Shown here piece by piece: positions 1 to 9,000 of a stretch of 13,130 nt of DNA (positions are counted from its first letter, which is position 1; each line of letters begins with the position of its first letter). The position numbers were made by a program. The stretch is from an archaeon (GTDB taxonomy: Archaea > EX4484-52 > B79-G9): positions 1 to 13,130 of the forward strand of contig JBDRKP010000062.1 of the NCBI GenBank assembly GCA_043813875.1. Reading direction: 5' to 3'.

Positions 1-3000
1 AGGCAGAAACACCTTCAGAGGCGTTTATTCGGAAGATGAGGTCTGAAGTGTGGTTTGGCTTCGCTAAAGACTGGTTTTGAGGTGATATTATGGCTGTAAA
101 ATATATATCAAAAAAGATGGAAATAATTACGGGATATCACAGCTTCAACTATTGAAAGTAAGATATTTTTCTTGAAGAAAGGCTCTGATTCTTGAGCTCT
201 GGAAGTTTGTTTATCCGGATATGTGCGCCGGTTTTTGTGCTGATGCTGATCATTGTTTAACATCATTTGTTTTCTTCGATGATCTCTTTGAATGCATTCA
301 CCACGGCCTTTAATTTTTCTTTTGAAATGCCATAGGTGGACAGTTTAAATGACTTTGTATGACCGGGTTTTATGCCTGTGATGCCTCTTTTTTTGAGCTC
401 GTTATAGAGAAAAAAACCTTTCTTTTTGTGCTTTTTTGAGATCTCATATAAGACAGGTGTATTGAAATACATCAGATCGTGCATGTGCGGCCTCTGGCCT
501 ACTAAAACAAAGCCGAGGGTTTCTAGTTCGGATGCAAACCACTGCGCTTTTTTTACTTCTTCGTCCCAGTTTTCTACTCTTTTATGTACTTCGGGAAATG
601 ACGACATCAGTGTTGCGATGGTTGCACCTCTTGATGTGCAACCGAGGCATTCTAGAACCTTGTTCGGGTAGTCTTTTGATATTTTAAGTACAATGTCTGC
701 ATATTTCTTGTTCATGCCGATGAATCCAATGGGTCCTGATGCGCTCATTGATTTGTGGCCGGATGCGACTATGAAGTCAGCTCCCAGCGCGGTCATATCT
801 ATCGGGCGGCGGCCTACGGAATATGCGCAATTCAGCACATAAGGCACGTTGTATTTTTTTGCAATGTCTCCCAGTTTTTTTGCATCTGAAAGATTTCCAT
901 AGTTGCCGTCGGGGTATGTCAAGAGAATCAGTTTTGGCTTGTGTTTTTTTATGAGAGGTTCGTAATTTGCGACATCGATGGAATCAGTGGAATCGTTGTT
1001 GTTTTTTACTTTTATGACGTTGAGATGAGCGCGTTCTATAGCAACAAGGCATGAATAATGGGCGTTTTCGTCGACAAGAACTGTATCGTCTGGTTCTGCG
1101 ATTGAATGCATGATCATAAACATTCCTTCACGCGCGCCGTTTGTTATACGGACGGTGTCGCAACCTACGAATTTTGGAAGGATATCTTTTGTGAATGTCT
1201 TTATCGGCGGTTTTTCGATGTCGTCAAGTGCGCCCTTGCAGAAATCACATACGGAGTAGCCGTCTCCAAATTCTATGAGCGCTTTTTTTGCTGCTTCTGT
1301 CAGTTTTCCGCCTGTCTGGAGCGGGTTGAGGTTAATGAAATCTTTTGTCTCGCGCTTGATATCTGTAAGTTTTGAATAATCCATAGATTTAATATACAAA
1401 TTATATTTATATACATATACCTAAATTTAAAAAAAAAGAAAGCGAGGAGAGAGAATTGAACTCCCGTGAGTCGCTCTGCAGGCGACCACATGGCCACTAT
1501 GCTATCCTCGCACATTAACTTTAATTGTGATGAAAACCGGGCCTTTTATGTCTATTTTCTTGTTCTGTTTCTCCAGCTGCTTTTTTGTTACAGAAGAAAT
1601 CATTAAATTTATATGCCCCAAAGCGCGAACCATTCCCGTGTATATCTCAAAATCAGCTGTTGGTTTGGATTCTATCTCTGCAGCGGCTTTATTTGCGATC
1701 GCCGCAATGAAAGATATATCTGTCCTTTGTCCTGTATTTTCATCCAAACTGTTGATTATATTTCCGTCTTTAACAAAAATCTTATTAAAGCCTGCAGGAC
1801 CGATCAATTTTTTGCCTTCCTCAACTTCGACTATAGATACTACTGTTTTTTTGCTGTCTATCACGCCAACCCACGCCACAACTTCTGCTGGCGCAATGTC
1901 GTTCTTGTGTTCCCGGGCTGTCTTGAGAATGGATTCGGCTATTTCTTTACCCTGTATGGTTTTTGGCTCTTCAATGTATTTTATGTCTTCTGCTATCTGT
2001 TTGTCGTCTAATGTGTCTTCAAGATAAAACTGGGGGAATATCATCTCTCTTATGTCTTTGTGACCGCCCAGCACCATTGCGAGGCGCTCAACACCGAAAC
2101 CAACATTGAATACGGGATACCTGATGTTAAAATTTGCAAGGGATATCGCAGAATACATGCCCATGTCTGCTATTTCCAGCCATTTCCCGTTGTGCATCAC
2201 AAATACTTCGTCTTCCAAGCCGTTCGCATAATATTTTGATGTCGCTTTTTTTGTCTCGAATCTTACTTTTTTGAAGCCTATTTTTTCGAATATTTTCTTT
2301 ACTATCCTCCGGCCGGCAACCACATCGATGTTGGGATCCATCACGACAATTGATGCGCTGTTGTGTACTCTGAGGTGGCCTGCATCCTCTTTTTGCTCGT
2401 TCCTGTAGCGGCGGCCTATTGAAAACAGGGCTACCGGAAAATCGGCTTTGTCCTGCATGGCAGATAGAGTGTGATACCATGTGCCGCTCATGTGGCTTCT
2501 TAAAGTAAGATTGGTCGGTATCGGCTTAAGGTCCTTTAACTGCTCAAAAAGAGATATAATCGCTGTCGCATGTTCTGTCTTGATGCCTAATTTCACGACA
2601 AGCTCCTCTACAAAATCGTCCCCTTCTATGTTTCCTTTTTTGTATTCCCGTAATATGTCTTTTAATAATGTGATATCGATCTTTGCAATCTCTTTAATGC
2701 GGGCAATTAATCTGTCATCAAGCCCAATTTCGGGTCTTGGCAGCTTTGCAATATAGAATGCCCGGTCAAGAATAACAGCAGCTTCCGGGCCATATTCGCG
2801 GTAGACGTCATCATCGGGAATGATGGTGAGGTTTTCGGTCTCATCAAATCCCATTTCGATGAGAAGGGATCTGAGGTGATTTATTGTTTTCCCGAGTATG
2901 TGCTCTTTACCTATCTTTTTTTCAAACATGAATTTTTGGGTGGGTTTTTGCTCAAATAAGGCTGATGTCTCAATCCATGTTTTTTCGAAATCGTTTTTTG

Positions 3001-6000: not shown

Positions 6001-9000
6001 GAAGACCAATATAGATAATATTGGAGCAGGGGATTAATCCGAAGAACCTTCTGAAAGGTTCATCATCACAGCGACCATAAAGCTTCGCTTTAGGTCACTT
6101 ATGGATATTTTGGAGCAGGGGGAGTGATTCGAACACCCGTTAATGAGCTTGCTGCTTTGAGCGATCTTTTGCTCTTTTGCAGGCTCACGCCAAGCCGCTA
6201 GGCGACCCCTGCGCGTCTGTTTGAATTGCGGGACAATATTTAAATAGGTTTTGTCATGATCTCTTTATCTTAGGACCGGCATCTGAGTCTTCTATTATGT
6301 AGCCGAGTTCCTGGATTTTTGATCTCAGTTCGTCTGACTTCTGCCAGTTCTTTTCTTTTCTTGCTTTTTCGCGCTCTTGTGAGAGCAATTTTACCACTTC
6401 AGGGATTTTCTCTTCTTTTATTTTCGAGAAAAGGCCGAGGACGCCTGAAAATTCTTCGTATAATGCAAGTGTTTTTTTGAGGACGTCTTTATTTTTGCCG
6501 GATTCCATGTATCTGTTTGCAAGACGGGCCAGTTCATGGAATGATTTTATTGCTTCGGGATTGTCAAGATCATCGGATAAGGCATCCTTGAACCGTGTTT
6601 GAAGCAGGGGGAGTGACTTCAACATCTCTTTGTCTATAGGGTATGTTTTTGCATCTCTGCCTTTCAGGGCAAAGCGTAGGTTTGTGAGGGTTTCTTTTAG
6701 TTTGTTGTAGTTATTTTTCGCGTTCTCTGCGAAGTCGTCTGTGTAGTCCAGCTTTTTGCGATAGTGCGTTGAGATGAACATGTATCGGACTATGTCGCCG
6801 CCGTATTTTTCTATTATGTCGGGAAGGGTGAAGAAGTTGCCTTTGGATTTGCTCATCTTTTCGCCGCCGACTATGAGGTGCTCGCCGTGGACCCAGTAGT
6901 GGACGAACGGCTTTCCTGTCGCGCCTTCTGATTGCGCTATCTCGTTCTCGTGGTGGGGGAATATGAGGTCTACGCCGCCTGTGTGGATGTCAAGCGTGGG
7001 GCCGAATGCGCTCATCGCCATGACGGAGCATTCGATGTGCCAGCCGGGGCGTACTTTTCCCCACGGGCTGTCGTAGCAGATGCCGCGCTTTATCTCGTCA
7101 ACTGTGGATGCTTTCAATAGGGCGAAGTCCTGGGGGTTGTCTTTTTCGTATTCGTCGACGTCGACTGAGGCGCCTATCTTTATGTTGTCGAGGTCTATTT
7201 TTGAGAGCTTGCCGTAGTCCTTGAATGATGAGATTTTAAAATATACTGATCCGCCTTTTTCGTATGCCATGCCTTTTTCTACAAGTTTCTTTGTGAGATC
7301 AATCATGCCTGCTACGTTTTCTGTCGCTTTGGGGTAGCTTGATGCGCGCTTGATGTTGAGCATGTCTAGGCCGCGGAAGAATTCATGAGTGTATTTTTCT
7401 GTGAAGTCTTTCAATGTCATTCCTGCAATCTCAGAGTCCCTTATGGTCTTGTCGTCTATGTCTGTGAGGTTCATGACGAGTTTCACTTTGTAGCCTAGGT
7501 ATTCGAGGACTCGCCTCAGGTTGTCGGTCATCAAGAATGAGCGGTAGTTTCCGATGTGGGGCATGTTGTAGACTGTCGGGCCGCATGCGTAGATTGTGAC
7601 TGCGCCTTCTTTTATTGTCCTGAAAGTGTCTTTTTTTCTTGTGAGGGTGTTGTAGAGTTTCAGCATTTTTGTCACGGATTGGTTTTGTTGGGTTGCGCTA
7701 TTTGTTTTTGTGTTTTATCAATACTTCGGGAAGATATTTAAATATATGGATTGCAGCTGGCAGTCAAAAACAAAGATAGGGGTTATTGTTTCATGTTTTT
7801 TGTGATTAGTTCTGATAGCTCGAGAATCTCTATTTTTGCATATTTGCCTTCTGTGTTCTCTTTTAAGTGCGCGTAGCATAACGGGCAGGTTGTTACCAGG
7901 CGCTTTGTTTTCGTTACTTTCAGGATGTTTTCTGCTACCTTGTCTGAGATGTCTTTGTAGTTCGATCTCACACCTCCGCCGCCGCCACAGCACAGGCTTT
8001 GCTCCCTGTTTCTTGGGAGCTCGCGGATCGTGTAGCCCATGTGTCTTATTATGTCTCTTGGCTCGTCAAAGATGCCTGAGTGGCGCCCCAGATGGCATGG
8101 GTCGTGATATGTTATTGTTTCGGTGTTGTCTTTCTTTAGGTGCAGTTTTTTTATGTCGGGCGCTATCACCTGTGTCATGTGGAGGACTTCCAGGTTGTAT
8201 CTGTTTTTGAGAATATGATAGCATGCGGGGCAGTTGGTGATTATCTTCCCTATGCTGTACTGCTTGAGGATATTGATGTTCTTTTCTTTGAGGTCTTCAA
8301 AGTCTTTTGTGTAGCCGGCGTTCAGGGCCGGGCTGCCGCAGCAGTTTATGTCTGTTTTCAGCATGATGAAGTCTATGCCAAGCCTGTTTAAGATTGTCTC
8401 GTAATTCTTCTGGATTTCGGGCAGCACTGTCTGTGTGAGGCAGCCGGGGTAGTAGAGGGTGTTTGTCGACGAGAAGAGGTCTTTTAGTCTTTTGAACATG
8501 GAAGTCACTTCAGATGTAGCCGAACAGCATGGCAAGGGCAAGCAGTATGAGGATCGCTCCAAGCATTAGCTTCATTGTGCGCTTGTGGCTGTCGCGCCAC
8601 TTTTCGAGGGCTTTCGCTTCGCCGCCGTAGTATATAATCCCTGCAAGCAATACGAGTGGGAGTATGAACATCAGGTTATATGTGAAGATGTAGGGCATTA
8701 TCTGCAGGAGGTTCTGGCCGTGGCCTTTGAGGACTTCGACGACTGTGAGGTATATAGGGATGCTGCACGGGGCTTCCAGAAGGGCGACGAGGGATCCCAA
8801 GAATACTGCTGCCGGAACTGTTGCTTTTTTTGTGAGCGCCTGGATGTGCTTTTTTGATGATTCGGGTATCTTCAATGTGATGCCTTTGCCGTACCAGAAG
8901 TAGTCTTTTATGTTTATTGCGCCTGCTATCAGGGCTAATGTTATCGCGATGTTGCGGATTATTGCCGGCTGATGAAGCTGCATGGAGGTGTAGTAGTAGA

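Follow-up and report, generated by a model that had tools for sequence, protein, structure and literature searches.

The window, a 13,130-nt stretch of one contig from an archaeal genome, carries two distinct tRNA-Cys(GCA) genes. One is physically tied to the indirect route to Cys-tRNA (SepRS and SepCysS) and the other to the direct route (CysRS). The preliminary description of this DNA had proposed this arrangement, and we confirmed both tRNA folds and found the two tRNAs to be 64% identical. Based on gene identities, folds, linkage and phylogenetic patterns, we consider it probable that these are working isodecoders of different ancestry and that their linkage reflects history more than strict wiring. 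The cassette with tRNA 1 would have been imported, and tRNA 2 and cysS would be native. The two routes lie within 3 kb of each other, on only this one contig.

The sepS cassette and tRNA 1

The genome encodes a SepRS of the DPANN/bacterial type (sepS, O-phosphoseryl-tRNA synthetase; 1502-3034, minus strand; TIGR00470, 439 bits, cut-off 380.65); its matches to solved structures of SepRS reach E about 1e-100. SepCysS is encoded at 263-1399 (sepCysS, minus strand; TIGR02539, 536 bits, cut-off 365.25), with a likely start at the in-frame ATG at 1384. Between the two genes lies tRNA 1 (1441-1511, minus strand), where it had been placed before and where ARAGORN and Rfam agree. It is 71 nt long, with the loop CUGCAGA (G37), the acceptor GCGAGGA, U73, a 4-nt variable loop and no encoded CCA. 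ARAGORN calls it tRNA-Cys(gca); it scores 54.6 bits against the Rfam tRNA model (gathering score 29) and 90.7 bits against a tRNA-Cys model built here.

The first 10 positions of tRNA 1 overlap sepS (1502-1511, minus strand) and form its final two codons (Arg-Gly) and TAG stop. This overlap is kept in all six sepS loci linked to tRNA 1. tRNA 1 is probably co-transcribed with sepS, because the stop codon of sepS is part of its 5′ end; it would then be freed by RNase P and 3′ processing, followed by CCA addition. The AT-rich spacer toward sepCysS (1400-1440, minus strand), read from the sequence, has an oligo-T run directly 3′ of tRNA 1 that looks like an archaeal terminator, then a TATA-like stretch 5′ of sepCysS. 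A scan of the window for promoters and terminators gave no enrichment, with bacterial models that are not applicable to archaea.

tRNA 1 adjoins sepS in this genome (G000) and in the relatives G003, G006, G007, G019 and G020, which reproduces the earlier count, and was not found after sepS in G002 or G004. In the window, sepS, tRNA 1 and sepCysS are contiguous on one strand. This contiguity is common to G003 and G006; G007 and G020 lack an adjacent sepCysS, and the G019 contig ends. A search with a tRNA 1 pattern gave no match in viral contigs and one in metagenome contigs, apparently the G019 contig.

Clusters of this kind are already published for DPANN archaea and bacteria, and the window is a further case. 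Two papers describe sepS-sepCysS operons "and sometimes tRNACys" in both groups (PMC8762117) and a compact tRNACys-containing operon "amenable to HGT" (PMC5424206). The likeness to these operons includes the compact cluster of sepS, tRNA-Cys and sepCysS, the SepRS group, the missing Ile444/helix motif and the signs of horizontal transfer. Here, unlike in that published text, sepS and sepCysS flank the tRNA, which overlaps the stop of sepS, although the overlap may exist in the published operons too. The host has also retained a tRNA-Cys and a CysRS of its own, at a distance of 3 kb.

tRNA 2, an intron-bearing tRNA-Cys beside cysS

The sole cysS of the genome (CysRS, cysteinyl-tRNA synthetase; 6254-7675, minus strand; TIGR00435, 479 bits, cut-off 340) is followed by tRNA 2 after 41 nt (6213-6253, minus strand), close to the 40 bp first estimated. 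This spacer includes a TTTAAATA box resembling an archaeal promoter about 26-33 nt 5′ of the tRNA, and tRNA 2 is probably transcribed from this TATA-like promoter of its own. Positions 1-73 of the tRNA span 6114-6212 (minus strand); the preliminary description began at 6115, which drops U73. Based on the fold, the tRNA-Cys model and Rfam, exon 1 (positions 1-37, ending in CUGCAA, with A37) occupies 6177-6212 and exon 2 occupies 6111-6149, of which 6114-6149 are positions 38-73 and 6111-6113 an encoded CCA. The fold places a 27-nt intron between them (6150-6176) at the canonical 37/38 site.

Annotation tools handle this gene poorly. Default ARAGORN misses it, as does Rfam at gathering on the whole window, and ARAGORN with -i reads 6111-6212 as tRNA-Gly(gcc) with intron i(35,27), the misnaming by ARAGORN that the preliminary description had reported. 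We reject the glycine assignment: ARAGORN cuts outside the bulges, and the intron-less orthologues and the tRNA-Cys model indicate cysteine. A separate tRNA-Gly(GCC) is present on contig C42. With lax filters on 6000-6320, the Rfam tRNA model gives 42.2 bits over 6114-6212 (gathering 29), and the tRNA-Cys model gives 67.3 bits. The fold has an energy of -39.8 kcal/mol (z -3.1), and none of 200 shuffles was as good.

The bulge-helix-bulge motif consists of two 3-nt bulges on opposite strands with a 4-bp helix between them. The tRNA 2 intron was described as such a motif, and its length, its position, the 4-bp helix (CUGC/GCAG) and the 3-nt 3′ bulge (CAA) all stand. The 5′ site, however, is in a 4x3 internal loop, so the motif is a relaxed form. 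Other archaeal 37/38 introns cut by EndA share the position, the central helix and the 3′ bulge, and differ in the 5′ site. Only one EndA gene was found in the genome (TIGR00324, 106.7 bits), a point that, like the 5′ site, counts against our reading; its product would splice tRNA 2 at 37/38. Of the 27 tRNA calls of the genome, 12 are intron-bearing (ARAGORN -i). We also found a Trm5b/Taw22-like methyltransferase and two CysK/CysM-like genes.

As claimed before, the anticodon is GCA, following from the bulge rule and from intron-less orthologues that adjoin cysS in G004 and G005 and have the loop CUGCAAA. Of these three species only ours has the intron. When 25 tRNA-Cys genes were aligned, 96.2% of the cells paired and 15 of 21 pairs changed on both sides, a result that none of 500 shuffles reached. 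Four DNA read runs yielded only short contigs of low depth, which match parts of 6030-6317 exactly; none of them forms a bridge or shows the intron-less form.

Just downstream is a degenerate copy of about the last 23 nt of tRNA 2, from the T-loop to the CCA (6022-6043, minus strand; 19 of 23 positions match, judged by eye). At its core, 6021-6032 is a perfect 12-nt repeat, a 12-mer found twice against zero expected. This repeat does not bracket a cysS-carrying element, because the stretch enclosed by its copies is only 77 nt long and does not include cysS. The TfrB-like neighbour of cysS, used as a query in G002, G003, G005, G006 and G007 in search of a deletion scar, gave no match at E<=1e-40 with this query.

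Ancestry of the two routes

SepRS occurs in 9 of the 42 genomes of the phylum (7/8 in the host genus g1 and 2/4 in g6) and CysRS in 30 of 42 (3/8 in g1), and both sets of counts reproduce those given before. Only g1 and g6, which belong to two different families, have SepRS and SepCysS; neither was found in any of the 8 genomes that represent sister genera g2 and g3. These absences are soft because the relatives are all incomplete MAGs (57-96% complete); G004 is also 8% contaminated and may mix two populations. A SepRS-like match in G031 with a TAG was dropped, as it is two adjacent ORFs parted by that stop.

The SepRS of the window is 75.5-75.9% identical to those of G003, G006 and G007 within g1, and 74.3-75.6% identical to those of G019 and G020 in g6. 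Other synthetases differ strongly between the same genera: PheRS-alpha is 70% identical within g1 vs 33-36% to g6, MetRS 73-74% vs 36-38%, and IleRS 79-80% vs 39-45%. The tRNA 1 genes of g1 and g6 share 90-94% identity. The SepRS values of 74-76% across families, against 33-45% for the other three enzymes, and the overlap present in 6 of 6 loci indicate that sepS and tRNA 1 form a mobile cassette. In quick tree searches, g1 and g6 SepRS form one clade (support 98) with g6 basal. Branching inside this clade is star-like (supports 90-92), so the donor of the cassette is not fixed. The nearest named outside relatives are from Aenigmarchaeota, Woesearchaeota and Nanoarchaeota (55-58%) and Chloroflexi (50-53%). 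The cassette region has a GC content of 0.41-0.43, compared with 0.44-0.49, and its GC skew also differs.

CysRS appears to have a different history. The preliminary description held that cysS and tRNA 2 were a module acquired together from a Methanosarcina-like donor and added to an older SepRS-only system. Identity to Methanosarcina CysRS is indeed high (68-71%, in line with the 71% first given), CysRS is sparse in g1, and the pair stays joined in two genomic contexts while the flanks differ. Its joint acquisition by an older SepRS-only system is not supported, and we regard an old SepRS-only lineage that later gained cysS as very unlikely. CysRS of the sister genus g2, which has CysRS only, is closer (74.6% over the full length and 72-80% for partial genes), and tRNA 2 is 86-88% identical to g2 tRNA-Cys, compared with 74-77% to that of six other genera. 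Methanosarcina nests inside g5/g3/g2/g1 in a quick CysRS tree, in which Methanosarcinales and other archaeal sequences were sampled from the best 80 loci of one scan, and an AU test rejects the alternative (p 0.0019) for this group, which was named after the tree was seen. No tRNA-Cys lies within 2.5 kb of cysS at any of seven Methanosarcinales loci, and it is SepRS that bears the transfer signature. The CysRS tree and identities, the likeness of tRNA 2 to g2, the SepRS identities and the absence of SepRS from g2 and g3 reverse the proposed polarity: the SepRS route and tRNA 1 look imported and the CysRS route resident.

We thus predict that a compact sepS-tRNA(-sepCysS) cassette, which belongs to the DPANN/bacterial SepRS clade and moves horizontally, carries tRNA 1 as its passenger, and that tRNA 2 is the lineage's own tRNA-Cys beside a vertically inherited cysS. 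The genome would then be an intermediate, with an incoming indirect route beside a resident direct route, and sister species would since have retained one tRNA type or the other.

Charging of the two tRNAs

Each enzyme may serve only the tRNA to which it is linked, giving two orthogonal pairs in one cell. Acceptor stem, D arm, variable loop and T loop all differ between the tRNAs, each tRNA moves with the gene of its enzyme, and the cassette takes a tRNA along when it crosses families, as though that of the host were unserviceable. M. mazei also has SepRS, CysRS and more than one tRNA-Cys species, and its enzymes are reported to prefer different isoacceptors (PMC9976931, PMC8762117); they depend on the m1G37 motif, and the tRNAs of our genome are far more divergent, of different ancestry and each gene-linked to one enzyme. 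Several observations nevertheless make a strict partition unlikely. Both tRNAs have GCA and U73, and U73 is a major cysteine determinant (PMC9976931). Hydrophobic Ile444 and an adjacent helix of the anticodon-binding domain mark m1G37-dependent SepRS, according to PMC5424206. Aligned to 2du3, the window SepRS has Ser in place of Ile444, with deletions of 7 residues against the A. fulgidus enzyme and of 16 against that of M. maripaludis. It is thus not of the m1G37-dependent methanogen/Archaeoglobus type, and the same short loop occurs in all eight SepRS sequences of the phylum that cover the region. That paper also reports that bacterial relatives charge A37 and G37 tRNAs in vitro, and that "Ca. 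Parcubacteria" DG_74_2, with a SepRS of the same broad group, has both tRNACys-bac (A37) and tRNACys-arch (G37) near sepS-sepCysS and charges both (PMC5424206). That bin is described there as a genome mix, whereas here both tRNA genes are on one 13-kb contig. Position 37 also flips within the tRNA 1 type (G in G018, A in G019 and G020), so we discarded it as a separator of the two routes, a caveat the preliminary description had raised. G004 and G005 have a sister SepRS type without tRNA 1 and hold only tRNA-2-type genes. The co-occurrence itself is explained by physical adjacency alone. With a SepRS that lacks the motif and relatives that hold only the tRNA 2 type, strictly exclusive charging appears improbable; each enzyme probably favours its co-evolved tRNA, though not exclusively.

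A variant of this idea, which we consider quite unlikely, joins two insulated pairs (SepRS with tRNA 1, CysRS with tRNA 2) to a self-limiting cassette that invades CysRS lineages and displaces CysRS. Excision of tRNA 1 would destroy the sepS message on a shared transcript, because the sepS stop codon is inside the tRNA, and SepRS synthesis would be tied to the maturation of its own tRNA. Were this true, the cassette could displace CysRS, as four species of g1 suggest. Also very unlikely is that tRNA 2 is decaying or silent, or that the assembly joined DNA of two strains, one with SepRS and one with CysRS, into a chimeric contig. The 5′ splice site in an internal loop, the missing annotation, the scar-like repeat and the want of an independent contig across both loci fit such a view. 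Against it, all tRNA 2 helices are intact, with U73, CCA and a promoter-like box; the gene is conserved next to cysS in three species, and its anticodon stem shows compensatory changes against the G004 and G005 orthologues; SepRS and CysRS also occur together in G004 and G005; and estimated genome contamination is 0.55%.

Implications

Default ARAGORN and Rfam filters miss an intron-bearing tRNA-Cys of this kind and intron mode misnames it, so genomes of the group may be wrongly scored with one or no tRNA-Cys. Under the reading that we favour, an indirect-route cassette with its own tRNA entered a CysRS lineage, and CysRS is no longer found in some sister species. This direction is opposite to the usual account, in which CysRS replaces SepRS. 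Two tRNAs of such low identity and known ancestry share a contig here, and each adjoins the gene of one enzyme. This makes the locus a clean natural experiment for asking why both routes to Cys-tRNA persist in archaea and whether isodecoders divide between them.

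A tRNA-Cys gene beside each route

The window encodes both the indirect route to Cys-tRNA (SepRS and SepCysS) and the direct route (CysRS). The preliminary description placed a tRNA-Cys gene beside the genes of each route, and ARAGORN, Rfam, a covariance model and the predicted fold confirm this with small corrections. All five genes are on the minus strand. sepCysS (263–1399) scores 536 against a curated NCBIfam cut-off of 365, and sepS (1502–3034) 439 against 381. The tRNA 1 gene (1441–1511; ARAGORN tRNA-Cys(gca), Rfam tRNA 54.6 bits) is found with them. cysS (6254–7675; 479 against a curated NCBIfam cut-off of 340) lies about 3 kb beyond sepS, and the intron-bearing tRNA 2 is beside it.

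tRNA 1 has the anticodon loop CUGCAGA (with G37) and the discriminator U73, and CCA is not encoded. Its first ten bases are contained in sepS (a 10-nt overlap, 1502–1511, minus strand), which ends in the codons GTG CGA GGA TAG, so that the final Arg-Gly-stop is tRNA 1 sequence. All six tRNA-1-linked sepS genes, from two families, have this Arg-Gly-stop inside the tRNA (the window and loci L006, L008, L009, L010 and L012). If the 5′ end of tRNA 1 is cut from a joint transcript, the sepS mRNA would lose its stop codon. In our inferred reading of the spacer, an oligo-T run comes right after tRNA 1 and an AT-rich, TATA-like stretch lies ahead of sepCysS. The cluster is of the same kind as the sepS-sepCysS-tRNACys operon that is described for DPANN archaea and bacteria in one section of a published account (PMC8762117, section 3.1.2) and termed amenable to horizontal transfer in a passage of another (PMC5424206).

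tRNA 2 was not detected by default ARAGORN nor by Rfam over the whole window. With introns allowed, ARAGORN reads 6111–6212 as a tRNA-Gly(gcc) interrupted by a 27-nt intron. Rfam with lax filters, searched over 6000–6320, gives a tRNA match of 42.2 bits over 6114–6212 (minus strand), and a covariance model built from eight tRNA-Cys genes gives 67.3 bits. Positions 1–73 occupy 6114–6212, rather than 6115–6212 as first described. The precursor folds as a cloverleaf (−39.8 kcal/mol, z −3.1) in which a CUGC/GCAG helix lengthens the anticodon stem. The 3′ side has a 3-nt bulge (CAA), and the 5′ side has a 4×3 internal loop followed by a GAGC/GCUC hairpin. The bulge-helix-bulge motif proposed earlier for this intron has its helix and its 3′ bulge, and its 5′ site is of a relaxed form. 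If both sides are cut behind the second base, 6150–6176 is excised and the loop CUGCAAA is left, giving A37 and the anticodon GCA, as had been claimed; the intron-less orthologues beside cysS in two genomes of the genus (G004 and G005) have the identical loop. We reject the tRNA-Gly(gcc) identity on the basis of this orthologue loop and of a separate tRNA-Gly(GCC) elsewhere in the genome. The gene encodes U73 and CCA. In a comparison of 25 tRNA-Cys genes, including both from the window, pairing holds in 96.2% of cells, 15 of the 21 pairs have changed on both sides, and none of 500 shuffles reaches that level.

The genome encodes one EndA (TIGR00324, 106.7 bits) and a Trm5b/Taw22-like methyltransferase whose 187 bits fall short of the equivalog cut-offs. 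Two CysK/CysM-like genes reach 324 and 278 bits, where the cut-off is 344. Given these genes, it is plausible that the host can carry out splicing, form m1G37 and supply free cysteine.

Other features of the window and of related tRNA genes

At 6021–6043 (minus strand), 89 nt downstream of where tRNA 2 ends, its final ~23 nt recur in degenerate form. This copy matches at 19 of 23 positions by eye and includes the exact 12-mer CCCCTGCTCCAA, which occurs twice where 0 occurrences are expected. It resembles a scar left by integration into the 3′ end of the tRNA gene. A contig from one DNA run matched 6045–6102, with unlike sequence flanking both sides.

A frameshift, programmed or disabling, divides an IS630-family transposase (11873–12987, plus strand) between two overlapping ORFs, which cover profile positions 2–109 and 120–299; this region has the lowest GC in the window (0.37–0.38). 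A stand-alone LigD 3′-phosphoesterase domain gene (3142–3606, minus strand) adjoins a 595-amino acid ORF with AAA_33 and phosphotransferase-like matches (3713–5500, plus strand), which is overlapped on the opposite strand by a 247-amino acid ORF with no family match (3142–5500 region).

Although the genome is 91.5% complete, ARAGORN -i finds only 27 tRNA genes in it. Introns are reported in 12, several at odd positions, and standard tools probably miss part of the tRNA set. The tRNA-Cys genes of G017 (L056, 2610–2718) and of an Iainarchaeum record (L067, 1733–1834) have T-loop insertions of ~31–35 nt (non-canonical introns). Both are 0.7–1.3 kb upstream of cysS and were missed by ARAGORN -i. 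A contig of G008, from the sister genus g2, carries a tight tRNA cluster of Asn, Thr, an odd Tyr call, Cys and Gly (C78, L177, 517–2216). Its tRNA-Cys is unlike the genus's own, and the cluster may be foreign or mobile DNA.

Origin of cysS and tRNA 2

Among the 42 genomes of the phylum set, which are incomplete MAGs, CysRS is found in 30, including three of eight from the window's genus (its own genome, G004 and G005) and none of four from genus g6 of another family. tRNA-Cys was verified in 34 of the 42. The window CysRS is 80% identical to those of G004 and G005, 74.6% to that of G008, 72–80% to three partial g2 genes, 68–71% to seven Methanosarcinales sequences and 61–62% to those of genera g3 and g5. 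Identity to most other genera of the phylum is 36–47% (50–53% for three partial genes). For tRNA 2, identity is 88–92% with the orthologues in G004 and G005, 86–88% with g2 tRNA-Cys, 74–77% with the tRNA-Cys of six other genera and 64% with tRNA 1. Genus g2 has CysRS only, and its tRNA-Cys genes encode CCA, with the same D arm and anticodon stem as tRNA 2.

A quick tree search gives (g5,(g3,(g2,(g1,Methanosarcina)))), where g1 is the window's genus and its grouping with Methanosarcina has 99% support. A clade of g1, g2, g3 and g5 without Methanosarcina, a group chosen after the tree was seen, costs 75.6 log-likelihood units (p-AU 0.0019). No tRNA-Cys was found within 2.5 kb of cysS at any of seven Methanosarcinales loci. 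From these identities, the tree and the Methanosarcinales loci, the simplest reading is that cysS and tRNA 2 are native to the family. The Methanosarcina-type CysRS (L066, L072–L077) falls inside the family's clade as sister to g1 (compared with L001, L052, L047, L048 and L056), which suggests transfer from the window's lineage into Methanosarcinales. In this comparison, which sampled other archaea via one scan, it is the Methanosarcina enzyme that seems to descend from the window's lineage, not the reverse.

The cysS-tRNA 2 pair is kept at all three cysS loci of the genus, in two contexts. Flanks are common to G004 and G005 and not to the window, and the orthologue of their downstream gene is on contig C34 of the window's genome. 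Another G004 contig (C134; L175, 3–1373) has thioredoxin-like and TfrB-like genes 77% and 72% identical to those of the window (7783–9751). About 100 nt after them is a tRNA-2-like tRNA-Cys with G37 and the loop UUGCAGA, with no cysS; G004 contig C69 carries an identical tRNA. G004 (2.2 Mb, 8% contamination) may represent two populations. The cysS locus includes a tRNA-Cys in five of 30 phylum cases (the window's genome, G004, G005, G017 and G031) and in one record each of Iainarchaeum, Aenigmatarchaeota and Heimdallarchaeota, so this neighbourhood recurs.

Probable mobility of the sepS cassette

SepRS is found in nine of the 42 genomes (seven of eight in g1, two of four in g6) and SepCysS in seven (five of eight and two of four). 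The window SepRS is 75.5–75.9% identical to those of three genomes of its genus (G003, G006, G007) and 74.3–75.6% to those of two from another family (G019, G020). In the same genomes, identity within the genus versus across families is 70% versus 33–36% for PheRS-alpha, 73–74% versus 36–38% for MetRS and 79–80% versus 39–45% for IleRS. tRNA 1 differs between g1 and g6 at 4–7 of 71 positions. The cassette region has a GC of 0.41–0.43 against 0.44–0.49, and its GC skew is also different.

Quick tree searches place SepRS of g1 and g6 in one clade (98), with g6 basal. Among named outside relatives, Aenigmarchaeota come closest (58%), followed by Woesearchaeota and Nanoarchaeota (55%) and after them by Chloroflexi (50–53%). 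The tRNA 1 type is present in G018 and in the six genomes with tRNA-1-linked sepS (the window's, G003, G006, G007, G019, G020); a tRNA-Cys survey of the 42 incomplete genomes did not detect it in G001, G002, G004 or G005. The sepS genes of G002 and G004 end in KACD-stop with no tRNA after either. That of G005 is cut by the contig end, and its N-terminal part is the same variant (91% identical to the other two). Inside the clade, this variant without tRNA 1 branches next to the window's lineage as its sister (supports 90–92).

Judged from these sequences, the sepS-tRNA 1 cassette is probably the mobile part. The preliminary description had cysS and tRNA 2 acquired as a module and added to an older SepRS-only system; this polarity is reversed by the closeness of g2 relative to Methanosarcina, the nested position of Methanosarcina and the mobility of the SepRS cassette.

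Do the two enzymes divide the tRNAs between them?

A strict partition, in which SepRS charges only tRNA 1 and CysRS only tRNA 2, appears unlikely to us. It would fit the large difference between the two tRNAs, the supply of a tRNA by the sepS cassette and the travel of each tRNA gene with its enzyme gene, but joint gain and loss is explained by simple adjacency. Distinct isoacceptor preferences are reported for M. mazei SepRS and CysRS in two papers (PMC9976931, PMC8762117), which also give GCA and U73 as major determinants common to both enzymes; both window tRNAs have them. In addition, G004 and G005 have SepRS yet tRNA-2-type genes only.

Position 37 also argues against a strict partition. 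In tRNA 1 it is G in g1 and G018 but A in G019 and G020, and it is A in tRNA-Cys of genera g5 and g12, where SepRS was not found. Aligned to A. fulgidus SepRS, the window enzyme has Ser in place of Ile444 and lacks the following segment, a state common to all SepRS of the phylum that cover this region. Bacterial SepRS are in the same state, and two of them are reported to accept A37 as well as G37 tRNAs in charging assays in vitro (PMC5424206). The enzyme-tRNA wiring is probably not strict, as far as sequence comparison can indicate, and the tRNA pair of the window with its enzymes is a good in vitro test case.
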